DNA of 64,000 bases from Escherichia phage SP27, in sequence record LC494302.1; one strand, written 5' to 3'. Every line of letters starts with the position of its first letter. Position 1 is the first letter of the stretch. This document shows, piece after piece, positions 13,041-25,789 of this stretch. Under the pieces are notes generated by a model that had not been told where the DNA came from, did not search any database, and saw nothing but the letters and a program-made list of their open reading frames with translations. Both the position numbers and the translations under genes were made by a program.

Positions 13041-13073
13041 AGATTTTATCAAGACAACTAAGAGGAAATTAAA

Positions 13074-14092: not shown

Positions 14093-14097
14093 TTAAT

Positions 14098-14307: not shown

Positions 14308-14357
14308 TTTTTAAACGCGTATAATGTTTTACATGAAGGGGAGAAATGATTCTCCCC
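14298..14357 (+). promoter_or_regulatory. early promoter + 5' hairpin cassette
   Basis: TTGCAA 14298-14303 /16/ TATAAT 14320-14325; hairpin GGGGAGAA-ATGA-TTCTCCCC 14338-14357. Confidence 0.75.
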
Positions 14358-14376
14358 ACTAATTAAGGAATATGAA

Positions 14377-14523
14377 ATGAAAGCATCAAAAAAGAGTACT
14401 AACAAGAAAGCACGTTCAACCTTAGATGGGGTATTCCCTTTACGTTTCGTTGATGAAGTGGTTTCCTACCCGCCTGGCCTTACTCCTGAGATGGTAGAAA
14501 GTTTGCGTAAATCTAAAAAATAG
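14377..14523 (+). CDS. small hypothetical protein
   Basis: 48 aa, below track cutoff; hand-translated MKASKKSTNKKARSTLDGVFPLRFVDEVVSYPPGLTPEMVESLRKSKK; SD AAGGAA; sole ORF behind its cassette. Confidence 0.6.
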   Translation: MKASKKSTNKKARSTLDGVFPLRFVDEVVSYPPGLTPEMVESLRKSKK

Positions 14524-14526
14524 TAC

Positions 14527-14586
14527 TTGCAATTAGTTTTTAGTACTGTATAATGTTTTACATAGAGGGGGGAAATGGTTCTCCCC
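14527..14586 (+). promoter_or_regulatory. early promoter + 5' hairpin cassette
   Basis: TTGCAA 14527-14532 /16/ TATAAT 14549-14554; hairpin GGGGGGAA-ATGG-TTCTCCCC 14567-14586 (one G-U). Confidence 0.75.
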
Positions 14587-14604
14587 AATAACAGGAGAAA
14601 CAAA

Positions 14605-14757
14605 ATGAAACAATACAACGCTCGGTTTGATGTTACTATCGGCAACGGTAAAGGTCAATTCTCTTTCAGTACTCGACGCAGTTATACAGAAAACTTCCTG
14701 CGTAATTGTGCACTGACCGCCGCACAAATTAAACATTACTTTCAGGCTAAAAAATGA
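14605..14757 (+). CDS. small hypothetical protein
   Basis: 50 aa from MKQYNARFDVTIG; SD CAGGAG; track start 14575 lies in hairpin. Confidence 0.7.
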   Translation: MKQYNARFDVTIGNGKGQFSFSTRRSYTENFLRNCALTAAQIKHYFQAKK

Positions 14758-14843
14758 GATCATTAGCTTATTACAGTTCGGCCCTGGTCGGTGCATTGAT
14801 CGCGGCGTTGTTAGTAACCTATCTATTCTTTATGGTGATTTAA
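14754..14843 (+). CDS. 29-aa hydrophobic peptide (single TM helix)
   Basis: ATGA overlap with upstream stop; hand-translated MRSLAYYSSALVGALIAALLVTYLFFMVI. Confidence 0.4.
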   Translation: MRSLAYYSSALVGALIAALLVTYLFFMVI

Positions 14844-14981
14844 ATGAATCCTAACGGTATAATTTACAGTACTCCTAAAACGAAAGCAGACAAGGTAAAC
14901 GCTAAAAAAGCGAAAGTAAAGGAGTACATCAAGCAAGGCATGACGCGAAAGGCGGCGATTCTAAAAGCTAAAAATAAATGA
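14844..14981 (+). CDS. small basic protein
   Basis: 45 aa; ATG abuts previous stop (TAAATG); MNPNGIIYSTPKTKADKVNAKKAKVKEYIKQGMTRKAAILKAKNK. Confidence 0.45.
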   Translation: MNPNGIIYSTPKTKADKVNAKKAKVKEYIKQGMTRKAAILKAKNK

Positions 14982-14983
14982 AA

Positions 14984-15075
14984 AAAGTGGTTGACTTCGG
15001 TCAGCCATTTTGCTATTATATATTCATTGAGAGATAGCTCACTAGCCCACAGGGTGCAGGAGTGTATCTATTGTA
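14984..15075 (+). ncRNA. short promoter-driven noncoding unit (unit g) with promoter embedded in a terminator-like hairpin
   Basis: Hairpin TGGTTGAC-TTCG-GTCAGCCA holds TTGACT 14991-14996 /17/ TATTAT 15014-15019; ...GAGATAGCTCACTAGCCCACAGGGTGCAGGAGTGTATCTATTG. Confidence 0.45.
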
Positions 15076-15112
15076 TAATGTTTGAGTACTTAAAACTATT
15101 TTTAAAAAAGTA

Positions 15113-15172
15113 CTTGCAAACTATCTCAATAAGCGTATAATGTTTTACATCGCAAGGGGAAACGGTTTCCCC
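15113..15172 (+). promoter_or_regulatory. early promoter + 5' hairpin cassette
   Basis: TTGCAA 15113-15118 /16/ TATAAT 15135-15140; hairpin AGGGGAA-ACGGT-TTCCCCT 15154-15172. Confidence 0.75.
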
Positions 15173-15192
15173 TAGTAATAAGGAAACAAATC

Positions 15193-15534
15193 ATGACTAT
15201 CTCAATTGCTCAATCTAACTTTGAAAACGAAATCATCGCCCAGGCACTGCGTTTAAATGATGGTCGGGCCGAAATCAATTACGGTTTCAATTCAGGCGGT
15301 TGTGAAAAATATCAGTACTTTATAACTGCTGATGGCTGTGTCCTGGGCATCAATACAGTTATTGTAAACATCCAAAAAATTAATTTCAATGATCCAGACG
15401 ATAGCCAGTTTTACATCACTGGCGTAGACGTGAACTATGAGGATGACTCACTAACTGATGATCACACTGGCGAGCGGTTAGAAAGTGCATACGGTGAAGA
15501 TGATTATCAGTCCGGTCCAGAAGATTTCGAATAA
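15193..15534 (+). CDS. hypothetical protein (acidic C-terminus)
   Basis: 113 aa; SD AAGGAA; MTISIAQSNFENE. Confidence 0.85.
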   Translation: MTISIAQSNFENEIIAQALRLNDGRAEINYGFNSGGCEKYQYFITADGCVLGINTVIVNIQKINFNDPDDSQFYITGVDVNYEDDSLTDDHTGERLESAYGEDDYQSGPEDFE

Positions 15535-15548
15535 TATAAAAAAATAGT

Positions 15549-15607
15549 TTGACAATAGATTATAGTACTGTATAATGTTTTACATGAAGGGGAGAATAGT
15601 TCTCCCC
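15549..15607 (+). promoter_or_regulatory. early promoter + 5' hairpin cassette
   Basis: TTGACA 15549-15554 /16/ TATAAT 15571-15576; hairpin GGGGAGAA-TAG-TTCTCCCC 15589-15607. Confidence 0.75.
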
Positions 15608-15627
15608 ACTAACAGAGAGAAAACAAA

Positions 15628-15840
15628 ATGGCTAATATCCGGTCGAAATTAAAAAATGCAAAACAAGTTTTATTTTCAGATCATGAATACTTTAATAAAG
15701 ATATTACAGGAGTTACAAGTATCAAGGAAGTAAAAGAAAAAACCGGCGTTTTGTGTGATGTGCGATTAGTTGGAACATTTGGGAATAACGTGCTATATCG
15801 CTGCGGTGATTACAATTTTACACTGACTATCATTAACTAA
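15628..15840 (+). CDS. hypothetical protein
   Basis: 70 aa; SD AGAGAGA; MANIRSKLKNAKQ. Confidence 0.8.
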   Translation: MANIRSKLKNAKQVLFSDHEYFNKDITGVTSIKEVKEKTGVLCDVRLVGTFGNNVLYRCGDYNFTLTIIN

Positions 15841-15868
15841 AAATATTATCACAGTACTATCAAAGCTA

Positions 15869-15897
15869 TTGACAATGATTGATAGTACTGGCATAAT
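15869..15897 (+). promoter_or_regulatory. type-B promoter flanked by AGTACT inverted repeat
   Basis: TTGACA 15869-15874 /17/ CATAAT 15892-15897; CAGTACTATC upstream, GATAGTACTGG in spacer. Confidence 0.7.
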
Positions 15898-15932
15898 AAC
15901 TTTTATCAACTACACTACTAAGGAATTAAAAA

Positions 15933-16112
15933 ATGGCTATCATCGCAAAAACTGAAATCGTTGGTCTGGATTCTATCATCATGACGTTTGAAGATCAAAA
16001 AGGTATGTATGTAGTTTCCTATGGTGATTATGTTCGGGAGTATGAAACGGTAGACGAAGCCTTTGAAAGTTATATTCGCCAGGTGAATAAAGCATACGAC
16101 GACTACCGCTAA
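15933..16112 (+). CDS. small hypothetical protein
   Basis: 59 aa, below track cutoff; hand-translated MAIIAKTEIVGLDSIIMTFEDQKGMYVVSYGDYVREYETVDEAFESYIRQVNKAYDDYR; SD AAGGAA. Confidence 0.65.
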   Translation: MAIIAKTEIVGLDSIIMTFEDQKGMYVVSYGDYVREYETVDEAFESYIRQVNKAYDDYR

Positions 16113-16139
16113 AATATATTACCAGTACTATTAAATCTA

Positions 16140-16167
16140 TTGACAATGTTTGATAGTACTGTATAAT
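16140..16167 (+). promoter_or_regulatory. type-B promoter flanked by AGTACT inverted repeat
   Basis: TTGACA 16140-16145 /16/ TATAAT 16162-16167. Confidence 0.7.
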
Positions 16168-16211
16168 AAGTTTTATAAACAGTAGTTAACTTAACCTAAG
16201 AGAGAAATAAA

Positions 16212-16355
16212 ATGATCGCACTGGATTCATTCATCGACGCAGTACTGGCAAAAACTGGCGAGGATCTGACCGCAGAACAATACGCGATGATCGAACAATG
16301 TCAACAGGACGGTAAATCGGTGAAAGATACTGTTAAGATTATCCGCAAGATGTAA
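16212..16355 (+). CDS. small hypothetical protein
   Basis: 47 aa, below track cutoff; hand-translated MIALDSFIDAVLAKTGEDLTAEQYAMIEQCQQDGKSVKDTVKIIRKM; SD AAGAGAGA. Confidence 0.6.
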   Translation: MIALDSFIDAVLAKTGEDLTAEQYAMIEQCQQDGKSVKDTVKIIRKM

Positions 16356-16361
16356 GATTAT

Positions 16362-16390
16362 AGCCCACTGGTTAACGCTGGTGGGCTTTA
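16362..16390 (+). terminator. terminator-like hairpin (short T tract)
   Basis: AGCCCAC 16362-16368 / GTGGGCT 16381-16387 then TTTAATT. Confidence 0.55.
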
Positions 16391-16460
16391 ATTCATCACC
16401 CTATACAATGCCAGTACTCAACCGTTTATCTCGTTAGAATGCGTTACAGGACGTTTAACA

Positions 16461-16658
16461 ATGATTAGCATGAAATCAGTACAAAAACAAATAGAAACAT
16501 TATCAAAAATTAAACGTAAACAGTACTCCTTAGAATATACAATCAATGGTAACTATCATCTAATGAAAGAGAATAATTTTATAGTCATTGATGAATCATT
16601 GCAAATCATTAGTATAGTACTGAAAGCATTAATCAATGACAGAAAAAAATTAAAATAA
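16461..16658 (+). CDS. hypothetical protein
   Basis: 65 aa; AT-rich; weak SD; preceded by CGTTAGAATGCG motif. Confidence 0.5.
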   Translation: MISMKSVQKQIETLSKIKRKQYSLEYTINGNYHLMKENNFIVIDESLQIISIVLKALINDRKKLK

Positions 16659-16662
16659 TCTA

Positions 16663-16750
16663 TTGACAATATCATCCAGTACTGGCATAATACTTACACC
16701 AAGACGAGAACGTCACTAACCCATAGGGTGCACAAATGTAACTGTATAAT
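16663..16750 (+). ncRNA. short promoter-driven noncoding unit (unit h)
   Basis: TTGACA 16663-16668 /17/ CATAAT 16686-16691; CACCAAGACGAGAACGTCACTAACCCATAGGGTGCACAAATGTAACTG. Confidence 0.45.
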
Positions 16751-16753
16751 ATT

Positions 16754-16784
16754 GATCAAAAAATGATCTGATCAATACTTGATC
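16754..16784. repeat. GATC / TGATCA cluster
   Basis: GATC at 16754, 16765, 16770, 16781 (three as TGATCA) within 31 bp. Confidence 0.8.
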
Positions 16785-16989
16785 AATTTGCGTAAAGTAG
16801 TATAATTCTATGCAGTTGGTTAGACGAAAGGTTATGATTAGTAGTGCAAGTGTATAAAAATTTTCATGGTGTATCGTTCCGCACATATGGGGATGAATAT
16901 GTGGTATCATGTGGATTGGAAAAAGTAAGAACAAGTAATATTATTGTCGCATTACAGTACTATAGTATTTTTATAATGAGGTTAAAATA

Positions 16990-17247
16990 ATGGCTGTAGG
17001 ATTCGCGAAAGATGGGGCCGAACAAGACGAGATTAACGCAGTGATTCAGGCTGCCGTTAACCACGCTAGAAAGCAAATTAACGCACAAATAGAATCACTG
17101 ATACATTGCCTCGACTGCGGCGATATAATCCCTGAGAAACGACGCCAGGCCGTTAAGGGATGTAAGTACTGCATAACTTGCCAGGAGGATCATGATAGTA
17201 CTTTTAAACGTCCCCCGCGTAATTGTTGGCATAGATCTATGAGATAA
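16990..17247 (+). CDS. TraR/DksA-family C4 zinc-finger protein
   Basis: 85 aa; CLDCGDIIPEKRRQAVKGCKYCITCQE matches the C-x2-C-G-x2-IP-x2-RR ... C-x2-CQ pattern of TraR/DksA-type proteins; SD GAGG. Confidence 0.8.
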   Translation: MAVGFAKDGAEQDEINAVIQAAVNHARKQINAQIESLIHCLDCGDIIPEKRRQAVKGCKYCITCQEDHDSTFKRPPRNCWHRSMR

Positions 17248-17253
17248 AAAGTA

Positions 17254-17281
17254 TTGACAGTACTGAAAGATAGTTTATAAT
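17254..17281 (+). promoter_or_regulatory. sigma70-like promoter
   Basis: TTGACA 17254-17259 /16/ TATAAT 17276-17281. Confidence 0.7.
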
Positions 17282-17310
17282 ATTTTATATCTTAACTGAG
17301 GATTGAAATC

Positions 17311-17667
17311 ATGGGAATACAACATATCACGCGTACTACTGACAATGGCGAGATCACTGGCTATCAAGTACAGGGCAAAGTAGCACAATTGCAGTACTGG
17401 TTTGTTAAACGTGGAATCATTGCACCGGATCTTGATTATGACCGTGTAGCGTTTATTGATTCTCTTTATGTTGATCCTGATAGTCGGGGCAATGGTGAAG
17501 GTAACGAATTAATGAATGCCTTTATTGATGCCGCCGATGATTCAGATTGTATCATCTTAGAATGCGATACGGGAGAAGATAACGCCTTTAATCTTAAAGA
17601 ATGGTACGAAGGTTTCGGATTCGAGGTATTGATAGATAGTGAATATCCTATCATGATTTTATCATAG
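17311..17667 (+). CDS. small GNAT-like N-acetyltransferase (putative)
   Basis: 118 aa; LYVDPDSRGNGEGNELMNAF resembles GNAT motif A (R-G-x-G-x-G), WYEGFGFE resembles the C-terminal FYxxxGF element. Confidence 0.6.
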   Translation: MGIQHITRTTDNGEITGYQVQGKVAQLQYWFVKRGIIAPDLDYDRVAFIDSLYVDPDSRGNGEGNELMNAFIDAADDSDCIILECDTGEDNAFNLKEWYEGFGFEVLIDSEYPIMILS

Positions 17668-17670
17668 TAC

Positions 17671-17728
17671 TTGCATTTAGTTTTCAGTACTGTTATAGTA
17701 CTTACATCAAGGGGAAACATCTTCCCCT
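17671..17728 (+). promoter_or_regulatory. early promoter + 5' hairpin cassette
   Basis: TTGCAT 17671-17676 /17/ TATAGT 17694-17699; hairpin AGGGGAA-ACATC-TTCCCCT 17710-17728. Confidence 0.7.
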
Positions 17729-17745
17729 ACTAAGAGGAAATGAAA

Positions 17746-17934
17746 ATGGAAAACTTATCAAGTATTTTAGTACAAGATGATTTCGGTAATCCTGGAAGTG
17801 CTATCATTGTTCGGGGCAATAAAGCAACGTTTGTTATTGCTGGTGGACCCGTACAGCGTAGCATTAAAAATAATGCTGTTACCATTAATAATGTACGCTA
17901 TCGCTTAGATAAAGAATTAATTCATAAACTGTAA
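17746..17934 (+). CDS. hypothetical protein
   Basis: 62 aa from MENLSSILVQDD; SD GAGG 17734-17737 is 8 nt from ATG 17746 and only 2 nt from ATG 17740. Confidence 0.7.
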   Translation: MENLSSILVQDDFGNPGSAIIVRGNKATFVIAGGPVQRSIKNNAVTINNVRYRLDKELIHKL

Positions 17935-17961
17935 TATTAATTTAATAGAGGATAACAATAA

Positions 17962-18285
17962 ATGTACATTCATACTACTATCACAAAGGAAGTCCGTTGC
18001 CAGTTCGAAAGTATTCCGGGCGTATGTTTCATCACTGGTACGTTTTCCCCTGGTGATCGTGATAATCCAGTACTGTTACAATTACGCCATCCATCATGGG
18101 ATAAAGCATTTGATCTACCGTTGAATGAATTCGCAACTACTGCTGAAAAGTACATTAAAAATATTCGCGAGAATGATCGACTATTCATTAATGCTTTTAG
18201 TGATTCCGCGTTAAGCGAGATCCACGGCGTATTGGTTGCAATCATGGAATCAATGCAGAAAACTAAATTCAAACAAGGTGAATAA
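17962..18285 (+). CDS. hypothetical protein
   Basis: 107 aa; SD AGAGGA; MYIHTTITKEVRCQ. Confidence 0.8.
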   Translation: MYIHTTITKEVRCQFESIPGVCFITGTFSPGDRDNPVLLQLRHPSWDKAFDLPLNEFATTAEKYIKNIRENDRLFINAFSDSALSEIHGVLVAIMESMQKTKFKQGE

Positions 18286-18291
18286 AAACTA

Positions 18292-18351
18292 TTGACAATA
18301 GATTATAGTACTGTATAATAAGTTACATGAAGGGGAGAAATGATTCTCCCC
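18292..18351 (+). promoter_or_regulatory. early promoter + 5' hairpin cassette
   Basis: TTGACA 18292-18297 /16/ TATAAT 18314-18319; hairpin GGGGAGAA-ATGA-TTCTCCCC 18332-18351. Confidence 0.75.
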
Positions 18352-18368
18352 ACTGAGAGGAAAGAAAA

Positions 18369-18581
18369 ATGCAAGGTCAACTAATCGTTCGTAAATGGTC
18401 TGATACTAACGAAAAACCGTGGGATGTACAATACATCGGACCGGATGGGGTATCACGTTATCAGCCTGGCGTAACGCATAGTACTGAGCAATATGCCGCC
18501 GCTCACCGCGAACGCCTGTTAGAATCCATGAAACAGGGATTCTGTGAAAAATTCATTCAAGATCATTGGCTGAAAGATTAA
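18369..18581 (+). CDS. hypothetical protein
   Basis: 70 aa; SD GAGAGGAAA; MQGQLIVRKWSDT. Confidence 0.8.
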   Translation: MQGQLIVRKWSDTNEKPWDVQYIGPDGVSRYQPGVTHSTEQYAAAHRERLLESMKQGFCEKFIQDHWLKD

Positions 18582-18598
18582 TAGAAGGAGTACAGCTT

Positions 18599-18691
18599 AT
18601 GCAAATGAATCCGATGATTATTGTTTTAGCTGTACTTATGATCATTCATGCAATTGTAGAAGTATTAACGCAATCAGGAGTAATAAAATGA
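18599..18691 (+). CDS. 30-aa hydrophobic peptide (single TM helix)
   Basis: SD GAAGGAG 18584-18590; hand-translated MQMNPMIIVLAVLMIIHAIVEVLTQSGVIK. Confidence 0.5.
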   Translation: MQMNPMIIVLAVLMIIHAIVEVLTQSGVIK

Positions 18692-18861
18692 TTCAAGTAG
18701 AATTATCAGTACTGAAAGATCTGTTTTATCGGTTAGGTACTACTGGAGAGTATCCTAAAAGTGATACCGCAAAACTTTTTGTATCACTCGATTTATGGCA
18801 ACGCGAACAATTAGTAATGTCCTGGCGTAAAGGTAAAGCAGATAGCGAGGTGAAAGCATGA
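18688..18861 (+). CDS. small hypothetical protein
   Basis: 57 aa, below track cutoff; ATGA overlap; MIQVELSVLKDLFYRLGTTGEYPKSD... Confidence 0.55.
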   Translation: MIQVELSVLKDLFYRLGTTGEYPKSDTAKLFVSLDLWQREQLVMSWRKGKADSEVKA

Positions 18862-19007
18862 AAGAATTCTTATTCGAAGTAGTGTTTCAAGGTGTCGGTA
18901 GTAATCAATTGATTCGCTCAAGTGGTTACAATGTTAACCAGGCATGGAATAACATTAAACAAATGTACCCGAACGCTATCACATATCGCAACCCAAAAGA
19001 AGTTTAA
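18858..19007 (+). CDS. small hypothetical protein
   Basis: 49 aa, below track cutoff; ATGA overlap; MKEFLFEVVFQGVGSNQLIRSSGYNVNQAWNNIKQMYPNAITYRNPKEV. Confidence 0.55.
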   Translation: MKEFLFEVVFQGVGSNQLIRSSGYNVNQAWNNIKQMYPNAITYRNPKEV

Positions 19008-19015
19008 AAATAATT

Positions 19016-19105
19016 GAAAAAGGGATTGACTCCGGTCAGTCCCTTTGCTATTATATACGCATAGAAACAAATCAGCCCACCGGGTGCATAAATGTATCTA
19101 TTGTT
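19016..19105 (+). ncRNA. short promoter-driven noncoding unit (unit i), promoter embedded in terminator-like hairpin
   Basis: GGGATTGAC-TCCG-GTCAGTCCC holds TTGACT 19026-19031 /17/ TATTAT 19049-19054; CATAGAAACAAATCAGCCCACCGGGTGCATAAATGTATCTATTG. Confidence 0.45.
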
Positions 19106-19145
19106 TGCTGGTGGCTAGTACTGAAAACTATTTTTAAAAAAGTAC

Positions 19146-19173
19146 TTGCATTGTACTTAGAATCAAGTATAAT
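19146..19173 (+). promoter_or_regulatory. early promoter (upstream of conserved leader)
   Basis: TTGCAT 19146-19151 /16/ TATAAT 19168-19173. Confidence 0.7.
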
Positions 19174-19179
19174 GTTTTA

Positions 19180-19260
19180 CATCAGGACGGGGAACGAAAC
19201 AAGTAACCCCGTTAAGTAGTCCAGGAGTAAGACATACGAAAAACTCCCCTGATAAAATAG
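19180..19260 (+). ncRNA. conserved leader or short RNA of about 80 nt between tandem promoters (copy 2)
   Basis: Near-identical to 8204-8287; stem ACGGGG...CCCCGT; no ATG. Confidence 0.45.
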
Positions 19261-19261
19261 T

Positions 19262-19289
19262 TTGACAATAGAAAGTAAACGAGTATAAT
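19262..19289 (+). promoter_or_regulatory. sigma70-like promoter
   Basis: TTGACA 19262-19267 /16/ TATAAT 19284-19289. Confidence 0.7.
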
Positions 19290-19322
19290 ACTTACATCAA
19301 CCACTGATAAGGAAACATAAAA

Positions 19323-19598
19323 ATGCGGATTCTACTGACAGCTAACGAAATCGAACAAGTACTGACTACTAACCTGGAAGACTGGAAACGTGAAGCAGAT
19401 ATCCAGGCGGTTCAATGGTTAAATGATAAGTTAACGCCGGATGACTTAAGCAAGATTGTAGATCCTCAATTCTACGAAGATATCCACGACACCGCGTTAA
19501 GCGTCGAGGATGTACTAGATAAGCACTTTATTGATACTGATTTGCAGGTTTACGGTCGTAAAAACTTTATCACTATTCACGACATTTACAATAATTAA
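19323..19598 (+). CDS. hypothetical protein
   Basis: 91 aa; SD AAGGAA; acidic; MRILLTANEIEQVL. Confidence 0.8.
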   Translation: MRILLTANEIEQVLTTNLEDWKREADIQAVQWLNDKLTPDDLSKIVDPQFYEDIHDTALSVEDVLDKHFIDTDLQVYGRKNFITIHDIYNN

Positions 19599-19601
19599 GT
19601 A

Positions 19602-19663
19602 TTGACAAAGTATCTTAGTACTGTATAATAGTTTACATCGAGTGAGGGGAAACGGTTCCCCTC
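19602..19663 (+). promoter_or_regulatory. early promoter + 5' hairpin cassette
   Basis: TTGACA 19602-19607 /16/ TATAAT 19624-19629; hairpin GAGGGGAA-ACGG-TTCCCCTC 19644-19663. Confidence 0.75.
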
Positions 19664-19686
19664 CTAACAAAGAGAGAGAAATAAAA

Positions 19687-19869
19687 ATGGCTAAGTGCAC
19701 TATCTGCAAGAAAGAAATAGTATTAGTTCCAAGTGCCCGTGAACGTGCCGCTCGGTTCGGTGGCAAAGCGTCAGACTATACAAAAATGTTTACTGCCCAT
19801 ACAGCTTGCCAGGTAGCAAAACGTTCACAAGAAAGCGTAGAATTAATGCGTAAACTTTCCAAAAAATAA
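19687..19869 (+). CDS. small protein with C-x2-C ... H-x2-C pattern
   Basis: 60 aa from MAKCTICKKEIVLVPS ... FTAHTACQVAK; SD AGAGAGAGA; track start 19642 lies in hairpin. Confidence 0.75.
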   Translation: MAKCTICKKEIVLVPSARERAARFGGKASDYTKMFTAHTACQVAKRSQESVELMRKLSKK

Positions 19870-19872
19870 GTA

Positions 19873-19933
19873 TTGACAAAGTATCTTAGTACTGTATAAT
19901 AGTTTACATCAAGTGAGGGGAATGGTTCCCCTC
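19873..19933 (+). promoter_or_regulatory. early promoter + 5' hairpin cassette (near-duplicate of 19602-19663)
   Basis: TTGACA 19873-19878 /16/ TATAAT 19895-19900; hairpin GAGGGGAA-TGG-TTCCCCTC 19915-19933. Confidence 0.75.
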
Positions 19934-19956
19934 CTAACTAAAAGAGAGAAATAAAA

Positions 19957-20280
19957 ATGGCTATGATCCTTGCCCAGAAAGTAGAATTGAAAATTGTAAC
20001 CTCCTTTGACATTAACGTTAATCGGTGGACTGATTCACACGGCAATACTTACCACTCTTGCTACGTGTCTGCGTTAATTGGCGACCGCTGGGAAGACCTG
20101 GGACACGAAACCTTTACATACGGTTACGGTACACAAGGCGAATACACGGGCTTGGAGATCATTAAAGAAACCGTTATAGGTTTCAACCCGAAAGAAAAAG
20201 TTATTCACCGCATCGAGGAAGAGATCAACAAAGAAATAACAGTTCGCTACCACGATGTAAAACGTAAGAAAGACATGTAA
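19957..20280 (+). CDS. hypothetical protein (paralog of 13074..13418)
   Basis: 107 aa; GNTYHS ... YGYG ... DVKRKKDM. Confidence 0.85.
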   Translation: MAMILAQKVELKIVTSFDINVNRWTDSHGNTYHSCYVSALIGDRWEDLGHETFTYGYGTQGEYTGLEIIKETVIGFNPKEKVIHRIEEEINKEITVRYHDVKRKKDM

Positions 20281-20302
20281 TAGAATCCATTTAAAGTACT
20301 AT

Positions 20303-20331
20303 TTGACATTGCCCAGATAGTACTTTATAAT
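20303..20331 (+). promoter_or_regulatory. promoter with AGTACT inverted repeat
   Basis: AGTACTA-TTGACA 20303-20308 /17/ TATAAT 20326-20331, GATAGTACT in spacer. Confidence 0.7.
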
Positions 20332-20375
20332 AGACTCTAACTTGTAGTACTAACTCAACTAATAGGATGTATACC

Positions 20376-20771
20376 ATGATTACTAAATTCTACGCTACCC
20401 GTGAAGCTGCCCGTATTGTTGCACGCGAGGAAGGCGAAACATTTAAAGACATGGGCAAAGATGCACCGAAAGGTCAACGCTGGGCCGTACAGTTCAAAGA
20501 GATCTCTGATATTGTGAATTCACCGGAGCCAGTACTAACAGCAGCAGAACTAAAACGAGCGGATTTACTGGCGTCAATACTTGATGCACAAGATGAGTTT
20601 ATCGCTGATTCTGATATCAAAGTACAGACAAACCACACCGCTTGGACTCACGCGGATCACCTGGCAAACCTTAAGCGTCCAAGTGAACTGATTCGCAACC
20701 AGAAAGAGATCCGACACGACCGTAAGGGTAATCGTGTAACAGTATACAGTAAACGCCGCCAGGTTATCTAA
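20376..20771 (+). CDS. hypothetical protein (paralog of 7335..7601)
   Basis: 131 aa from MITKFYATREAARIVAREEGETFKDMG; SD AGGA 7 nt upstream; alternative ATG at 20367. Confidence 0.8.
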   Translation: MITKFYATREAARIVAREEGETFKDMGKDAPKGQRWAVQFKEISDIVNSPEPVLTAAELKRADLLASILDAQDEFIADSDIKVQTNHTAWTHADHLANLKRPSELIRNQKEIRHDRKGNRVTVYSKRRQVI

Positions 20772-20793
20772 TAACTTGCAGTACTAACAACAC

Positions 20794-20818
20794 GGCGGGA
20801 TCAGTTCCCGCCTTTTTT
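20794..20818 (+). terminator. intrinsic terminator
   Basis: GGCGGGA 20794-20800 / TCCCGCC 20806-20812 then TTTTTT. Confidence 0.85.
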
Positions 20819-20832
20819 ATAGGACAAACAAA

Positions 20833-21087
20833 ATGATTAAGGTTCAACTATATAAAGATAACATCTTACGGGTACACTATAAAGCACCTCAGAGAATCAT
20901 CACAAAGGCCGTACAGCTTGCAAATGAGTTTATTAATGGTAACCTATTACCTAGGAAGTTAAGCAACGGGAAACTGCGTGTAATCGACGTGGACACTAAC
21001 AACAGGATAGTAATCGAGAACACAGGAAAGATAAACCTTTATGAGCATCAACAATACAATAAGAAAATAAAACTAATATCACGTTGA
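20833..21087 (+). CDS. hypothetical protein
   Basis: 84 aa; SD AGGA; MIKVQLYKDNILRV. Confidence 0.75.
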   Translation: MIKVQLYKDNILRVHYKAPQRIITKAVQLANEFINGNLLPRKLSNGKLRVIDVDTNNRIVIENTGKINLYEHQQYNKKIKLISR

Positions 21088-21112
21088 CAGTACTCAAATG
21101 TTTTAGTACTAT
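21084..21112 (+). promoter_or_regulatory. sigma70-like promoter
   Basis: TTGACA 21084-21089 /17/ TACTAT 21107-21112. Confidence 0.6.
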
Positions 21113-21140
21113 ATGTACATACCAACACGGGGGAAACAAA

Positions 21141-21383
21141 ATGATTACTTTAGAAAAACGTATCAAAGAAACTACATCGCTGGTGGAACTGTTAACAGTA
21201 CTCAAATGTAAAACAACACCATTCAGCACGCCGGACTTTATTAATATGGTTGATGTTAATGGTCGCTATCGTATCACGGTCGAACAAGGAGCGGCGAAAG
21301 TATTCAGTACTAAAAACACGAAGGAAGTGATCCACGCCGTTAATGTTAAAAAAGTAGTTGCCATTGATAGTAAAGTACTGTAA
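21141..21383 (+). CDS. hypothetical protein
   Basis: 80 aa from MITLEKRIKETTS; SD GGGGGAA; track start 21084 coincides with the -35 element. Confidence 0.75.
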   Translation: MITLEKRIKETTSLVELLTVLKCKTTPFSTPDFINMVDVNGRYRITVEQGAAKVFSTKNTKEVIHAVNVKKVVAIDSKVL

Positions 21384-21414
21384 GATAGTTACATTAACTC
21401 AAGGAGAACATGCA

Positions 21415-21999
21415 ATGCGTAATTATACTAAATTCATCCGTACACTGTCAGAAATGGAAACCAACAAAGAGATCCTTTCAGCTTGTCGGTTAGCTGGCCT
21501 GGAGATCATCGGTGCTGGTTCTTCCCGTATAGTTTTCGCTTTAAATGATCGGTTAGTGATTAAGGTCGCGAATTGTGATGCGGGTGTAGAACAAAATGAA
21601 ACTGAATGTAAGGTATGGAATTTTTTAGACTATGACCGCCCTCAGTTGAAACAGTACTTTGCAAAGGTGCATATGCATTTATGCGATCCTGATAATATGT
21701 TTATCGTTATGGATCGGTTGAGTACTGCAAGTAAAGGCAGTGTGAAGCACGTAAACGCGTGCAATGAATTAAAGTACAATATTAAACGTAATGCAATCGA
21801 CCGCCAGCACCGCTTTGCTGATGCACTACAACACGTTGATGATACATTATCAACACTAACGATAAGAGATATCAGAAAACAGAATATCGGCCAGGATCGT
21901 AATGGACTTATTAAAGTACTTGATTACGGTTTAACCAGCAATATCTGGAATCAGTACTATAAAAAGCGTGATGTGGCAGCAAGTAAGGTAACACGATAA
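21415..21999 (+). CDS. protein-kinase-like protein (putative Ser/Thr kinase fold)
   Basis: 194 aa from MRNYTKF; SD AAGGAG; IGAGSSRIVF (Gly loop), VIKVA (Lys), DIRKQNIG (D-x-K-x-x-N catalytic loop), VLDYG (DFG-like). Confidence 0.65.
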   Translation: MRNYTKFIRTLSEMETNKEILSACRLAGLEIIGAGSSRIVFALNDRLVIKVANCDAGVEQNETECKVWNFLDYDRPQLKQYFAKVHMHLCDPDNMFIVMDRLSTASKGSVKHVNACNELKYNIKRNAIDRQHRFADALQHVDDTLSTLTIRDIRKQNIGQDRNGLIKVLDYGLTSNIWNQYYKKRDVAASKVTR

Positions 22000-22007
22000 A
22001 AAAGATT

Positions 22008-22100
22008 AAAAAAGGGATTGACTCCGGTCAGTCCCTTTGCTATTATATATCCATTGAGAGATAACTCACTGACCCATAGGGTGCGGAAGTGTATCTATTA
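22008..22100 (+). ncRNA. short promoter-driven noncoding unit (unit j), promoter embedded in terminator-like hairpin
   Basis: GGGATTGAC-TCCG-GTCAGTCCC; TTGACT 22018-22023 /17/ TATTAT 22041-22046; ...GAGATAACTCACTGACCCATAGGGTGCGGAAGTGTATCTATTA. Confidence 0.45.
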
Positions 22101-22140
22101 TATAAGTATTCAGTACTGAAAACTATTTTTAAAAAAGTAC

Positions 22141-22200
22141 TTGCATTGTACTTAGAATCAAGTATAATGTTTTATATCGAGAGGGGAAATGGTTCTCCCT
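22141..22200 (+). promoter_or_regulatory. early promoter + degenerate 5' hairpin
   Basis: TTGCAT 22141-22146 /16/ TATAAT 22163-22168; AGGGGAAA...TTCTCCCT 22182-22200 with one mismatch. Confidence 0.65.
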
Positions 22201-22219
22201 GGCAATAAGGAATAAAATC

Positions 22220-22441
22220 ATGACTACAATGACTTGCATTTACGCTTCCAATCTACTGAATGATGCGGCCTTTAATGTTGATTCAGAATATCAATGTTAT
22301 CGGGATGAAAATAAAAAAGTTTTTGTAGTTGATAATAATGGTTTCCATATTGAATTACAATCCGGCTTCACTGGTGTTGATGGTAAATCAGTATGGGGCG
22401 TACAGGATGATAAAGGCACATATCATTTTAAACGTAATTAA
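22220..22441 (+). CDS. hypothetical protein
   Basis: 73 aa; SD AAGGAA; MTTMTCIYASNLL. Confidence 0.8.
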   Translation: MTTMTCIYASNLLNDAAFNVDSEYQCYRDENKKVFVVDNNGFHIELQSGFTGVDGKSVWGVQDDKGTYHFKRN

Positions 22442-22444
22442 GTA

Positions 22445-22503
22445 TTGACAAAGTATACCAGTACTGTATAATAGTTTACATCAAGGGGAGAATAGTTCTC
22501 CCC
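22445..22503 (+). promoter_or_regulatory. early promoter + 5' hairpin cassette
   Basis: TTGACA 22445-22450 /16/ TATAAT 22467-22472; hairpin GGGGAGAA-TAG-TTCTCCCC 22485-22503. Confidence 0.75.
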
Positions 22504-22525
22504 GATACTAAAAGGAAACAAAATT

Positions 22526-22798
22526 ATGTCCAGCTACTCCGCTACTATGATCATTAAAGATATGAACGGTAATCCTACTTCTGCTGGTGGATCATTTGGA
22601 AACATTAATTTAGATGGTCGGTTATCCATGCAATCAGCAATCGATGCAGCGAAAGAAGTTTTTAAGAATGAATGTACTGTTAGTAAGCTGGATTATATGG
22701 GATTTGCTATCGAAAAAACTAATCGTTTTGTGGACTACAAAAAACCACTGATGATTGATACTAACCTGAAAGCAAACGAAGTGGAGTACTTATTATGA
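22526..22798 (+). CDS. hypothetical protein
   Basis: 90 aa; SD AAAGGAA; MSSYSATMIIKDMNG. Confidence 0.8.
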   Translation: MSSYSATMIIKDMNGNPTSAGGSFGNINLDGRLSMQSAIDAAKEVFKNECTVSKLDYMGFAIEKTNRFVDYKKPLMIDTNLKANEVEYLL

Positions 22799-22986
22799 CA
22801 GTTGAAGAAGTTAAAAAAGTACTGGCAGTACTACGCTATCATAATCATTGTAAGGTGAAGAATGATCCTGATTATCTTGATTCATCCCTGGAAGAGGATA
22901 CACTACAAGCAATAAGCCATATGCAAACATTAGCAAAGCGTATGACCGAAAAGAATAGACCGGACTATATCGGAAATAAAATTTAA
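22795..22986 (+). CDS. hypothetical protein
   Basis: 63 aa; ATGA overlap; MTVEEVKKVLAVL. Confidence 0.75.
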   Translation: MTVEEVKKVLAVLRYHNHCKVKNDPDYLDSSLEEDTLQAISHMQTLAKRMTEKNRPDYIGNKI

Positions 22987-22993
22987 AAAGTAC

Positions 22994-23054
22994 TTGCATT
23001 GTAGTTAGATTAACGTATAATGTTTTACATAGAGCGGGGGAATAGTTCTCCCGC
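22994..23054 (+). promoter_or_regulatory. early promoter + 5' hairpin cassette
   Basis: TTGCAT 22994-22999 /16/ TATAAT 23016-23021; hairpin GCGGGGGAA-TAG-TTCTCCCGC 23034-23054 (one G-U). Confidence 0.75.
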
Positions 23055-23072
23055 CAGTCCAGGAGATACACC

Positions 23073-23336
23073 ATGAACACTATCGAAATCACTATCAATG
23101 CACACGTATACGACAACGTAATCATGCAAACTACTATGACCGCTAATGATACCAGTACTTTGCGGAATACTGTTATTAGTGCCGTATGTGCCGCTATCGG
23201 TGATGTCGCCCTGGAAAATGCAGAACATATCAACAACGGTTTCACTATGTGCAAGCGTGATAACGCAAAACATATCATCGTAGAAGGTTACGGCGGTGTA
23301 GAATTTAATGTTTATATGAAAAAAGTACTTGCATAA
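23073..23336 (+). CDS. hypothetical protein
   Basis: 87 aa; SD CAGGAG; MNTIEITINAHVYDN; 3' end overlaps next promoter. Confidence 0.8.
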   Translation: MNTIEITINAHVYDNVIMQTTMTANDTSTLRNTVISAVCAAIGDVALENAEHINNGFTMCKRDNAKHIIVEGYGGVEFNVYMKKVLA

Positions 23337-23385
23337 TAACTAAAACAAAGTATAATGTTTTGCATAGGGGGAGATATCCTCCCCC
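23329..23385 (+). promoter_or_regulatory. early promoter + 5' hairpin cassette
   Basis: TTGCAT 23329-23334 /16/ TATAAT 23351-23356; hairpin GGGGGAG...CTCCCCC 23367-23385. Confidence 0.7.
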
Positions 23386-23403
23386 ACTAAAAGGAGTAAT
23401 AAA

Positions 23404-23628
23404 ATGGCTAACTTTGATGAACTGATGCGGGAAGTAGCTAACCTGGCAGAAGAGAAGAAATCATTCGATTCTATCTATAACACCGCTCATCGTGATTCAG
23501 TACTGGCATGTACTCAGGATCAAAAAGATGAACTAATCGCCACCTATCATGAAGCATGGAAGTACTACCGACAATGGGAGAAAGAAGAAAGAGAGTCTAC
23601 CATTGACGGCCTCAACAATCTAATCTAA
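23404..23628 (+). CDS. hypothetical protein
   Basis: 74 aa; SD AAGGAG; MANFDELMREVANL. Confidence 0.85.
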   Translation: MANFDELMREVANLAEEKKSFDSIYNTAHRDSVLACTQDQKDELIATYHEAWKYYRQWEKEERESTIDGLNNLI

Positions 23629-23647
23629 AAGTTTTATTTCAGTACTA

Positions 23648-23676
23648 TTGACATAGCTTGATAGTACTGATGTAAT
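23648..23676 (+). promoter_or_regulatory. type-B promoter flanked by AGTACT inverted repeat
   Basis: CAGTACTA-TTGACA 23648-23653 /17/ TGTAAT 23671-23676. Confidence 0.6.
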
Positions 23677-23704
23677 AACTTTACTAACTACAAGGGGAAA
23701 CATA

Positions 23705-23962
23705 ATGGAACAGTTCACACAATATCGGGTAAATCCTCAAGCTATGGCCTACGTAGAAGACCATAAAACATTACCAGTACTAACACCAATTAAAGGCCAT
23801 ATCTATCGTGCAATGTCATGGAATACCGCCCAGGATGGATATACTACCGCTGGCGTGGGTATGTATTGCGGGAATGGTGAATGGTTTGATCCAAATAATC
23901 CGGTAGCCATTGACAGTACTGAAAAAATGAAATGGGCCGACTACATCGAAGATATTTCATAA
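23705..23962 (+). CDS. hypothetical protein
   Basis: 85 aa; SD AAGGGGAA; MEQFTQYRVNPQ. Confidence 0.8.
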   Translation: MEQFTQYRVNPQAMAYVEDHKTLPVLTPIKGHIYRAMSWNTAQDGYTTAGVGMYCGNGEWFDPNNPVAIDSTEKMKWADYIEDIS

Positions 23963-23968
23963 AACTAT

Positions 23969-24029
23969 TTGACAGTACTAACCAGTAATGTATAATGTTT
24001 TACATAGAGCGGGGGAATAGTTCTCCCGC
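23969..24029 (+). promoter_or_regulatory. early promoter + 5' hairpin cassette
   Basis: TTGACA 23969-23974 /16/ TATAAT 23991-23996; hairpin GCGGGGGAA-TAG-TTCTCCCGC 24009-24029. Confidence 0.75.
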
Positions 24030-24051
24030 CAATAGTTTGGAGTAAAACATT

Positions 24052-24252
24052 ATGTCTATCGCTATCGCCCTGGTTGAAGTACTGAAAGAAGCTAAAGCCA
24101 ACCAGATCGACGTAAAGATCCAGGAACTACAAAACGGCGTAATCGGCTGTACTTGTACCGCTGGTGGAGCGGCAGACTATCGAGAACACGAATCACTCGA
24201 ATCACTGGTTCGGTATCTTACCATGATCGTTGATGATTGGAGAATCATCTAA
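24052..24252 (+). CDS. hypothetical protein
   Basis: 66 aa; SD TGGAG; MSIAIALVEVLKEAK. Confidence 0.8.
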   Translation: MSIAIALVEVLKEAKANQIDVKIQELQNGVIGCTCTAGGAADYREHESLESLVRYLTMIVDDWRII

Positions 24253-24264
24253 CAAAAAAGAATA

Positions 24265-24352
24265 AAAAAGGGATTGACTCCGGTCAGTCCCTTTGCTATT
24301 ATATACGCATAGACAAAAACTAGCCCACAGGGTGCATAGGTGTATCTAAAAT
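24265..24352 (+). ncRNA. short promoter-driven noncoding unit (unit k), promoter embedded in terminator-like hairpin
   Basis: GGGATTGAC-TCCG-GTCAGTCCC; TTGACT 24275-24280 /16/ TATTAT 24297-24302; CATAGACAAAAACTAGCCCACAGGGTGCATAGGTGTATCTAAA. Confidence 0.45.
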
Positions 24353-24414
24353 ATATGGTTAATAACGGTGAGTAACTATCTGCTGGTGGAGTGAAAACTA
24401 TTAATAAAAAAGTA

Positions 24415-24443
24415 TTGACAAAGTATATCAGTACTGCGATAAT
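24415..24443 (+). promoter_or_regulatory. sigma70-like promoter
   Basis: TTGACA 24415-24420 /17/ GATAAT 24438-24443; leader differs from cassette type. Confidence 0.65.
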
Positions 24444-24496
24444 GTATCTCGTAGGGCGGCAATGGTGCGACGGCCCACAAAGTTAGGAGATTCAAA

Positions 24497-24829
24497 ATGA
24501 GTACTTCAATCGCTATCGTTAAAGCTTTCATCCGTACCAATGTTTCATCTGTATTCATCGACGGTATGGATCGGGAAGTAGAATACTCAATCATTATCGC
24601 ACAGACTGCAAACGGTGCTCGGTATATCCTCAATGATAGTGAAGCAAATCACTACTACTTCACTAAAGCTACTGGCTTTAAACGCATCGATGCCGATGTA
24701 GTATACGCTAAGATGAATAAGCTGGTAGACAAGATTAACGCTAAAGGCACTATTGATTTACAGTACTGGACCGAAACCGATCCAGAATATGGATCTCACC
24801 GCTACCTGAATCCAGGTATTAAAATGTAA
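24497..24829 (+). CDS. hypothetical protein
   Basis: 110 aa; SD TAGGAG; MSTSIAIVKAFIRT. Confidence 0.85.
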   Translation: MSTSIAIVKAFIRTNVSSVFIDGMDREVEYSIIIAQTANGARYILNDSEANHYYFTKATGFKRIDADVVYAKMNKLVDKINAKGTIDLQYWTETDPEYGSHRYLNPGIKM

Positions 24830-24836
24830 AAAGTAC

Positions 24837-24898
24837 TTGCATAGTACTTAGATTCATGTATAATGTTTTACATAGAGAGGGGGAAATGGTTCTCCCTC
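24837..24898 (+). promoter_or_regulatory. early promoter + 5' hairpin cassette
   Basis: TTGCAT 24837-24842 /16/ TATAAT 24859-24864; hairpin GAGGGGGAA-ATGG-TTCTCCCTC 24877-24898 (one G-U). Confidence 0.75.
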
Positions 24899-24918
24899 CT
24901 AAATTAAGGAGTTTTATC

Positions 24919-25320
24919 ATGACCTTCTCAATCACTTCCTTCGCTGACGTTTTAGTACTGGCTCGGACTTTTGGTAAAGATGCACTGGAGTACGCTGTAA
25001 GTAATGGCACTATCCAACCGGAACAGTGCCGCATCATTGGAAACTGCAAACGTTGGGCGGTATCCAATACTATTGCACTGGAAAACTTCCACGATGGCAA
25101 CAATGAATATTCTGTTGATGTAGTATTCGAAGCCGTTGATCTCGGCGGTATCTATAATACTAACCTGAATGATGTGCGTATCGTTCGCACGGGGTTCGGT
25201 GCTTATGATGTATCTATCCGTGAAGCTATGAACACCGGATACATTAGCAAGGACTTACTTGCTCACATCATGCAGCTGTGTACGGAACGTAACGAAGCAC
25301 GTACTATCTTAGGGCTGTAA
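24919..25320 (+). CDS. hypothetical protein
   Basis: 133 aa from MTFSITSFADVLVL; SD AAGGAG; track start 24856 lies in the -10 element. Confidence 0.8.
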   Translation: MTFSITSFADVLVLARTFGKDALEYAVSNGTIQPEQCRIIGNCKRWAVSNTIALENFHDGNNEYSVDVVFEAVDLGGIYNTNLNDVRIVRTGFGAYDVSIREAMNTGYISKDLLAHIMQLCTERNEARTILGL

Positions 25321-25344
25321 GCAATACACATCACCAAACATCAT

Positions 25345-25364
25345 AGGCCGCTCTCTAGCGGCCT
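25345..25364 (+). other. GC-rich stem-loop without T tract
   Basis: AGGCCGC 25345-25351 / GCGGCCT 25358-25364. Confidence 0.5.
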
Positions 25365-25388
25365 TAACTATATCAGGAGTACATACAC

Positions 25389-25598
25389 ATGATCTATACA
25401 GTATACAGCGTCCTAGGCACTATTGCAGGCGTACATGATAACGTCGATAGTGCTATGCGTACAGTACTGCAACAGGTTCCACTAAAGCCTAAGACCATTA
25501 AGCAGATGACAGCACGACTAACCAGGGCGACCGATGGCGTGGAAGTATGGCAGGACTACGGGGATACACAGATAATCGTTAGCGTAACGAAGGATTAA
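25389..25598 (+). CDS. hypothetical protein
   Basis: 69 aa; SD CAGGAG; MIYTVYSVLGTIAG. Confidence 0.8.
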   Translation: MIYTVYSVLGTIAGVHDNVDSAMRTVLQQVPLKPKTIKQMTARLTRATDGVEVWQDYGDTQIIVSVTKD

Positions 25599-25626
25599 TG
25601 CGTAAAGGGATCTAGTACTGATTCAG

Positions 25627-25692
25627 AAAAAAGTCAAGGCGTTTTTAAAATTATGCGTTAAAAAAATGCATAGGTAATCCCTTGACTTTTTT
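25627..25692 (+). terminator. long-loop hairpin with flanking A and T tracts (possible bidirectional terminator)
   Basis: AAAAAAGTCAAGG 25627-25639 is the perfect complement of CCTTGACTTTTTT 25680-25692. Confidence 0.5.
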
Positions 25693-25789
25693 GAAATAAA
25701 AGGGATTGGACTATGGCAAAATGCGTAGGGGGCTAAAGGGCGGGTAACCTTAGCGACTTCGATAAAGGGGTATTACGAATAAAATGTTA

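Follow-up and report, generated by a model that had tools for sequence, protein, structure and literature searches.

The gene at 21415-21999 of the window analysed in this study, a stretch of 64,000 nucleotides from Escherichia phage SP27 (LC494302.1), raises the question of whether a protein of 194 residues can be a working protein kinase and, if it is one, when during infection it is made and what it modifies. The original prediction, made from the sequence alone, read the gene as an early one encoding a minimal protein-kinase-like fold, likened the product to T7 gp0.7 and suggested a role in host reprogramming or counter-defence. Judged from sequence and modelled structure, the product is probably an active protein-kinase-like phosphotransferase produced early in infection; the fuller statement, that this early enzyme acts on host macromolecules, appears moderately likely. 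The gene and its translation start are as follows.

21415..21999, + strand: kinase coding sequence (194 aa, PHROG 4301, C-lobe-truncated protein-kinase-like), ATG at 21415 and stop codon at 21997-21999
21402..21406, + strand: Shine-Dalgarno sequence AGGAG, 8 nt 5' of the kinase ATG, read directly from the sequence

The open reading frame (ORF) was exactly as first described, and the annotations of fEgEco12, Sharanji, vB_Ec-M-J and phAPEC6 place the start at the same codon. The strand opposite the kinase ORF is closed, with no reading frame. The ratio of nonsynonymous to synonymous substitution (dN/dS) against four orthologues was 0.06-0.18 by the Nei-Gojobori method, and the gene is therefore considered real and under purifying selection. 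The surrounding 6 kb shares 94-98% identity with the PBECO4/121Q/G17/Sharanji group (Asteriusvirus, jumbo coliphages of 350-385 kb), and conservation of the kinase extends from Escherichia into jumbo phages of Klebsiella, Salmonella, Erwinia, Xanthomonas, Yersinia and Pectobacterium, at 26-42% identity. Public annotation of the gene is inconsistent: the PBECO4 (KC295538) entry UniProt L7TKF0 is a fragment with 147 of the 194 residues, and in CMSTMSU (MH494197) the orthologue is matched in two pieces at 79% identity without an annotated gene, and may be frameshifted or decayed.

Homology to protein kinases became clearer as more relatives were included. For the single sequence, the top match in Pfam was Pkinase (PF00069, E=0.004), and all 20 matches in the PDB at E<=10 were protein kinases, the top weak ones aligning in the catalytic-loop/DFG register. 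A profile of 14 close relatives gave 251 PDB matches at E<=1, essentially all kinases, with alignments to MAP2K7 spanning the Gly loop to beyond the DFG motif; in the related-loci search the same profile retrieved phage 121Q alone. A profile of 50 diverse relatives gave 142 matches at E<=0.01, the best being MAP2K4 (1.5e-5), and the 60 best matches listed were without exception eukaryotic-type protein kinases. Eleven of 50 family members also match Pkinase individually (best E=5.7e-6), and the GenBank annotators of the orthologue in Klebsiella phage Muenster recorded an HHpred kinase match at 99.9%. Since the PDB matches align in register and the motif residues coincide with conserved columns, the kinase motifs are beyond what chance would give. 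Elsewhere, the PHROGs search assigned the protein to phrog_4301 (E=2e-41), listed as 'unknown function', the NCBIfam search returned no match, and PADLOC gave weak kinase-type matches to PD-T4-6 only.

The structural evidence agrees. With the 14-sequence alignment AlphaFold2 produced an unusable model (predicted local distance difference test, pLDDT, 48); with the 50-sequence alignment the model reached pLDDT 94.8 and a predicted template-modelling score (pTM) of 0.90, and it has the bilobal kinase fold. The top Foldseek matches were Lpg2603, MEK1, APH(2'') and Rio2, and Bud32 was also found with Rio2 among the structural matches. The minimal protein-kinase-like fold of the original prediction is thereby upheld, as the profile searches returned kinases only and neither they nor the confident structure prediction yielded a non-kinase fold.

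The identification itself is already known. Orthologues are labelled 'protein kinase domain-containing protein' in ph0011, 'serine/threonine-protein kinase' in fEgEco12, Turkey3 and Turkey5, and 'putative protein kinase' or 'protein kinase' in Munch, Muenster, SE_PL, fENko-Kae01 and K64-1, while the PBECO4 fragment is entered in UniProt as a protein kinase domain protein. The kinase is mentioned in the Sharanji paper, and a C-terminally truncated phage kinase architecture was described in 2017 (PMC5512222).

The catalytic elements lie within the gene as listed below, with conservation counted over 187 full-length modules from the best 160 family proteins.

21508..21537, + strand: Gly-rich loop IGAGSSRIVF, residues 32-41 (G33 87%, G35 96%, S36 89%, R38 98%)
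21562..21606, + strand: beta3 Lys50 to alphaC Glu64, with the signature K-x-A-x-x-x-x-G-x-x-Q-N-x-x-E
21868..21885, + strand: catalytic loop D152-I-R-K-Q-N157 (D152 97%), aligning with the HRDxKxxN loop of MAP2K4
21922..21930, + strand: DFG-equivalent D170-Y-G172 (D170 99%, Y/F 86%, G172 98%)

All of the motifs quoted in the original prediction were found in the order given there: IGAGSSRIVF (32-41), VIKV (48-51), NETECKVW (61-68), DIRKQN (152-157) and VLDYG (168-172). The Gly-rich loop is present, with the third Gly position of GxGxxG held by the family-invariant Arg38 (98%). The Lys/Glu pair is also in place, K50 lying on strand 47-52 and E64 on helix 55-73 of the model, and the columns of the signature are nearly invariant (K50 100%, A52 94%, G57 96%, Q60 97%, N61 97%, E64 99%); the C-helix Glu proposed within NETECKVW is thus borne out. 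The DxKxxN reading of the catalytic loop stands in part: Asp and Asn are present, but the Lys is at +3 instead of +2 from the Asp and is unconserved in the family. HMMER pairs R154, at +2 from D152, with the canonical catalytic-loop Lys, and K155 follows at +3. Position 157 is N in 34%, H in 32%, S in 19% and Q in 11% of the modules, N157 being kept among close relatives only, and G159 is conserved in 97%. As the residue preceding D152 is mostly Gly (position 151 is G in 48% of modules, position 150 is mostly a gap, and no conserved His precedes D152), the family is not of the 'RD' type.

In the model, two conserved N-terminal helices (residues 4-26) precede beta1-beta3 (30-52) and alphaC (55-73). 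After one more strand come helices resembling alphaD and alphaE (109-120 and 130-145) and then the catalytic loop, which two short strands separate from DYG. Past G172 the chain continues for 22 residues, with one short helix (175-182) in that tail. Compared with eukaryotic protein kinases (ePKs; PF00069, with MAP2K4 and MAP2K7 as the nearest solved sequences), the bilobal fold is equal up to the DFG motif, and the Gly loop, beta3 Lys, alphaC Glu, catalytic Asp and DFG-type Asp occur in the same order. Unlike ePKs, the phage protein lacks the activation segment, the APE motif and helices F-I, as shown by both the model and the sequence length, as well as the HRD His/Arg and the conserved catalytic-loop Lys, and it has the invariant Arg in the Gly loop. 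The short C-terminus is a true domain boundary, since modules in tandem relatives end at the same point, about 15 residues past DYG, the next module restarting about 15-40 residues after each DYG; the word 'minimal' was well chosen in this respect.

The protein retains the Lys50-Glu64 pair that positions ATP, Asp152 for catalysis and Asp170 for metal binding. It is probably a stand-alone, constitutively competent ATP-dependent phosphotransferase built of the N-lobe and the catalytic half of the C-lobe. Activation-loop phosphorylation would not be required, because the loop itself is missing and an HRD arginine is not conserved. The conservation pattern suggests that the gamma-phosphate is held differently from canonical Ser/Thr kinases, and Arg38 may make the contact for which the catalytic-loop Lys is lacking. 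Alternatively, the protein may bind ATP without transferring phosphate to a separate substrate, either as an ATPase switch of the kind proposed for Rio and Bud32, or as a pseudokinase-like scaffold that sequesters a host factor. The presence of Rio2 and Bud32 among the structural matches is consistent with this, and the truncated C-lobe, missing catalytic-loop Lys and variable Asn could reduce transfer. Such a role is nevertheless improbable, given that Asp152 and Asp170 are 97-99% conserved over 187 very divergent modules, which is unusual for pseudokinases, and that Iyer et al. drew the same conclusion for analogous truncated kinases (PMC5512222). With catalytic residues conserved in 97-100% of these modules, an active enzyme is favoured over a pseudokinase.

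The best-known phage kinase, T7 gp0.7 (T7K), neutralises defence systems by phosphorylation and carries a DPV motif (PMC13645617). T7K and the present protein are both protein-kinase-like enzymes of lytic coliphages, with genes in a block that host RNA polymerase reads, and T7-type kinases in BFVD, the library used for viral fold comparison, match the model of the present protein at a template-modelling (TM) score of about 0.55. A diverged T7 gp0.7 orthologue doing the same job would share both of these features, yet this explanation is hardly credible. BLASTP against T7 gp0.7 gave no alignment, the hhalign probability was 2.8% (and 1.5% against the T7K-type protein of Sharanji), the two fall into separate PHROGs (4301 as against 2828/15752), DYG stands in place of DPV, and the shut-off/DNA-binding C-terminal domain is missing; membership of the T7 gp0.7 family was accordingly rejected. 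Moreover, the lineage has a separate true T7K-type gene, Sharanji gp144, so that asteriusviruses encode two unrelated kinase-fold proteins. Because there is no sequence relation and a separate T7K-type gene exists, the analogy of the original prediction is valid at the level of the fold and fails as homology.

The Sharanji gp144 gene (locus L008:4183-4857, outside the window) encodes WNN14432.1, a protein of 224 aa in phrog_15752 (E=1e-97) with a catalytic loop PDIHSSN, a DPL motif and no shut-off domain, while the Sharanji orthologue of the kinase at 21415-21999 is WNN14351.1. Which protein of G17 and Munch was meant as the T7K homologue in the T7K paper was deduced from the Sharanji paper together with the PHROG assignments.

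On the second part of the question, when the protein is made, the genomic setting is informative. The features concerned, where orf80 denotes the ORF directly upstream of the kinase gene, are as follows.

4822..25750, + strand: stretch equivalent to the direct terminal repeat (DTR), by blastn against the vB_Ec-M-J DTR (1-21,525); the right boundary (about 25,750) is extrapolated
20303-20331, + strand: perfect sigma-70 site, an alternative kinase promoter, from a consensus scan
20794-20812: terminator, from a scan, between the preceding promoter and the kinase gene
21084..21112, + strand: candidate sigma-70 promoter TTGACA-17-TACTAT, matching at 10/12 positions, from a consensus scan only, 5' of the orf80-kinase unit
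21358-21386, + strand: weaker candidate promoter, 9/12, from a consensus scan
22011..22038, + strand: 12-bp-stem hairpin, 12 nt past the kinase stop codon, from a terminator-like scan

The DTR block consists of small genes on the + strand, the kinase gene included, with host-type promoters. The same placement was found in two genera: in vB_Ec-M-J the PhageTerm-defined DTR covers 1-21,525 with the kinase gene at 16,690, and in Klebsiella phage Muenster it covers 1-20,030 with the kinase gene at 17,325. Records including both repeats contain two copies of the kinase gene. The 64-kb window has 12 perfect sigma-70 sites (TTGACA-N16/17-TATAAT), every one of them on the + strand within 5186-23996, compared with a chance expectation of 0.13; the remaining 38 kb have none. 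Since the kinase gene lies in the DTR and the perfect promoters are confined to the same block, early, host-RNA-polymerase-dependent expression is a well-supported inference, and the description as an early gene holds to that extent. Such expression would compare with that of phage T5, whose terminal repeat carries pre-early genes. Host RNA polymerase would read the gene, of which each genome has two copies, within the first few minutes after infection. The protein is presumably not delivered with the particle in the sister phage phAPEC6, whose orthologue (gp500c) is missing from the 62 virion proteins identified by mass spectrometry.

The kinase gene is the last of its unit, which closes at the hairpin at 22011-22038. 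The hairpin region belongs to a repeat family (D8) with copies at 19006, 21998 and 24254. The 12-bp-stem hairpin itself, AAAGGGATTGACTCCGGTCAGTCCCTTT followed by GCTATTATAT, recurs at 14984-15011, 19019-19046, 22011-22038 and 24267-24294; it is terminator-like without a T-tract, and contains a TTGACT -35 box at a spacing of 17 nt from a TATTAT -10 box. The element may serve as terminator and promoter in one. A cassette of about 90 nt was also observed ahead of most of the small DTR-block genes between 5186 and 24885, with 16-17 copies per repeat family (for example 10110-10199, 14518-14607 and 22132-22221). It consists, in order, of a near-consensus sigma-70 promoter (AAAAAGTACTTGCAA/TTGACA, 16-17 nt, GTATAATGTTTTACATC), a hairpin, a ribosome-binding site and ATG, the hairpin in its 5' leader being conserved and GC-rich (GGGGAGAAATGGTTCTCCCC).

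What the enzyme would modify is a harder matter, and reduced kinases of other systems offer several precedents. Phage polyvalent-protein kinases have lost the C-terminal subdomain and retained the ATP-binding and phosphotransfer residues; they occur both in large multidomain proteins and as stand-alone forms, and are predicted to modify host proteins (PMC5512222). That group, found mainly in (pro)phages of Verrucomicrobia, Chlamydia and Bacteroidetes, has a conserved His, a His-Asp insert and further signature residues (PMC5512222). The present family resembles it in the missing subdomain and the kept active-site residues, and in having relatives within a tape-measure protein, in tandem arrays and beside ART-PolyVal and SNF2 genes. 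It differs, by the published description, in having no conserved His before D152 and in its own GSSR and QNxxE signatures; the SP27 kinase itself is stand-alone and outside the virion proteome of the sister phage, whereas distant relatives occur in a PhageMin_Tail protein and in arrays of 2-4 modules. HopBF1, a type III effector with a minimal atypical kinase fold, is specific for HSP90 (PMC9950578), showing that protein substrates are compatible with a similarly small and reduced fold. By analogy with these systems, the SP27 enzyme may phosphorylate host, and possibly phage, macromolecules, thereby helping takeover of the cell or disarming its defences; its role would run parallel to those of T7K and the truncated polyvalent-protein kinases, in an independent family.

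The wider family is large. An exhaustive HMMER search of a protein library clustered at 50% identity recovered 2,072 cluster representatives with a cut-off of E<=1e-3, of which 244 also passed E<=1e-10. Single family proteins of about 200 aa in BFVD come from CBB (two paralogues), RaK2, Ralstonia phages RP12 and RSB1, and phages of Aeromonas and Rhizobium, among others. Tandem arrays contain 2-4 modules, four being the most counted as full-length matches. In one 39-kb contig (Logan SRR32481264; L010:2318-12064) a PhageMin_Tail tape-measure protein of 3,248 aa holds two modules, at residues 653-836 and 847-1038, together with a third stretch bearing a more canonical Gly loop, GQGAFRNVYEL. Being embedded in a tape-measure protein, the modules of this phage would be delivered with the virion, and such a fusion fits, by analogy, a logic of acting in the first minute of infection.

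Gene contexts were counted in the best 80 of 376 IMG/VR loci retrieved with one peptide pattern. An RNA-repair context, defined by a polynucleotide kinase/2H cyclic phosphodiesterase (PNK/2H-CPD), RNA ligase 1 or CCA-adding gene, was found at 23 of these 80 distant loci in several arrangements, the kinase modules there being mostly 26-60% identical. In one arrangement (L061-L092) the kinase gene is directly 5' of a P-loop PNK/2H-CPD gene, followed by two conserved genes for unknown proteins (c19 and c5) and a T4-type RNA ligase 1; examples are L070:1921-2532, with neighbours to about 6500, and L092:5001-6636, and a CCA-adding enzyme is near in some loci. The kinase-fold gene would be an additional member of this cassette for RNA repair. 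One phage protein of 2,130 aa fuses the module with 2H phosphoesterase and CCA-adding enzyme domains.

These contexts bear on the possibility that the kinase-fold phosphotransferase has a non-protein substrate, such as RNA (a tRNA 2'-OH or 5'-OH), a nucleotide or a small molecule, serving RNA repair or protection or the quenching of a signal; a defence signalling nucleotide or an aminoglycoside-like compound would be candidates. ArkI/Ark1 (PDB 7vnx, 8yv5), which phosphorylates the 2'-OH of tRNA U47 in thermophiles, demonstrates that a minimal kinase fold can act on tRNA (PMC9095486), and the RNA-repair linkage of the distant relatives is striking. Set against this, the nearest solved relatives by sequence in the PDB profile searches are protein kinases rather than APH, Rio or ArkI, with no sequence-level match to ArkI from the kinase profiles, and a P-loop polynucleotide kinase is present in the RNA-repair cassettes as it is; the explanation is weakened by both facts. 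In addition, the 64-kb window contains no RNA-repair genes, the relatives concerned are about 25% identical to the SP27 kinase, other contexts occupy 57 of the 80 loci, and, by comparison with ArkI, the RNA link of this family comes solely from gene neighbourhoods of distant members. A non-protein substrate is therefore regarded as rather unlikely, and a macromolecular target in the host is preferred.

Among the other contexts in the best 80 loci, about 20 have a divergent SNF2 helicase next to the kinase. In these (L015-L026 and L049-L056) the helicase gene on the opposite strand is followed by the kinase gene, c1 (an unknown protein of 180 aa), an ART-PolyVal-like gene, c3 (an unknown protein of 471 aa) and c8; the ART-PolyVal-like protein scores 29 bits, just under the Pfam cut-off, and the block recalls the polyvalent-protein domain set split into single genes. 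Baseplate gp25 precedes the kinase gene at about 10 loci, and arrays of two or three successive kinase genes recur. No homologues of the recurrent partner genes were found within the 64-kb window.

A bolder proposal would unite these observations: PHROG 4301 and its roughly 2,000 relatives could be a phage-wide, C-lobe-less 'first-minute' effector serving RNA conflict. Delivery would be either by pre-early transcription from the DTR or inside tape-measure and polyvalent proteins, and the effector would inactivate tRNA-cleaving defence nucleases by phosphorylation or phosphorylate RNA ends directly. If true, this would explain why the module repeatedly shares operons with PNK/CPD, RNA ligase 1 and CCA-adding genes, and would define a counter-defence distinct from T7K, but the proposal is tentative and at present we think it unlikely.

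Several observations weigh against the preferred reading of an early phosphotransferase acting on host macromolecules. The Pkinase score of the single sequence, 16.9 bits, is below the gathering cut-off of 31.7, and no functional family of Pfam, NCBIfam or PHROG claims the protein. The metal-binding Asn position is variable across the family, the +2 and +3 positions of the catalytic loop are unconserved, and the Lys typical of Ser/Thr kinases is missing, as is the peptide-binding platform of ePKs. The RNA-repair context at 23 of the 80 loci and the fusion with 2H phosphoesterase and CCA domains suggest an RNA-related biology, at least for the distant branch. A promiscuous anti-defence role could be redundant in a phage that already has a T7K-type kinase, and no biochemical or transcriptomic data for the kinase or any family member were found in the literature. 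The class of substrate, protein as opposed to RNA or another molecule, is the weakest step of the explanation.

The finding is correct and, as stated, ordinary; it raises a moderately interesting question about a large family of phage kinases. Phage kinases have recently been shown to be broad anti-defence weapons (T7K, Nature 2026), and the kinase considered here belongs to a second family, unrelated to T7K and much more widespread, that sits in the pre-early terminal repeat of jumbo coliphages regarded as therapeutic candidates. Identifying its substrate would reveal a route of cell takeover and could explain differences in host range. The question is directly testable, given a small gene, clear catalytic-dead mutants (K50A, D152A and D170A) and phages that grow on E. 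coli K-12.

The genes near the kinase are given below.

16990-17247: TraR/DksA zinc-finger gene (zf-dskA_traR), by domain match
17311-17667: GNAT gene, by domain match
20833..21087, + strand: ParE-like toxin-fold gene (84 aa), two positions upstream of the kinase gene (PF24732, E=6.4e-11, above the Pfam cut-off)
21141..21383, + strand: orf80, an 80-aa ORF directly upstream of the kinase gene, with no family match

The TraR- and GNAT-like genes noticed originally are real, but 'next to' the kinase gene is loose, the distance being 3.7-4.4 kb in the upstream direction, or about a dozen genes. The ParE-like protein is 65% identical to gp041 of Muenster ('YafQ-like toxin'), which occupies the same relative position, and the gene is syntenic in Alcyoneusvirus; between genera it is far better conserved (65%) than the kinase (36%). 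No obvious antitoxin partner for it was found.

A domain of this type encoded close by, with a counterpart likewise two positions 5' of the kinase gene in Muenster, could indicate that the two genes form a toxin-antitoxin-like or toxin-regulating module. This is very improbable. The intervening orf80 is not conserved in Muenster, and the kinase/ParE pairing was seen at none of the 80 distant loci among recurrent neighbours. Common gene order in two related genera would be expected from plain synteny, and since the distant kinase homologue of Xanthomonas phage XbC2 has no ParE-like gene nearby, the ParE-kinase order is probably mere synteny.

Two further features of the window were noted. Short imperfect direct repeats with an 8-nt phase (GGATGGCT/AGACGGCT-like) are clustered at 5567-5726, about 750 bp inside position 4822, to which the left physical end of the vB_Ec-M-J genome aligns; a connection with the terminus or with packaging is possible. 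Outside the terminal repeat, 34079-59507 is occupied by a long run of + strand ORFs, about 35 in succession and all of much the same size (154-207 aa), in which overlaps of a few bases are frequent; the run resembles a large tandem array of paralogues.

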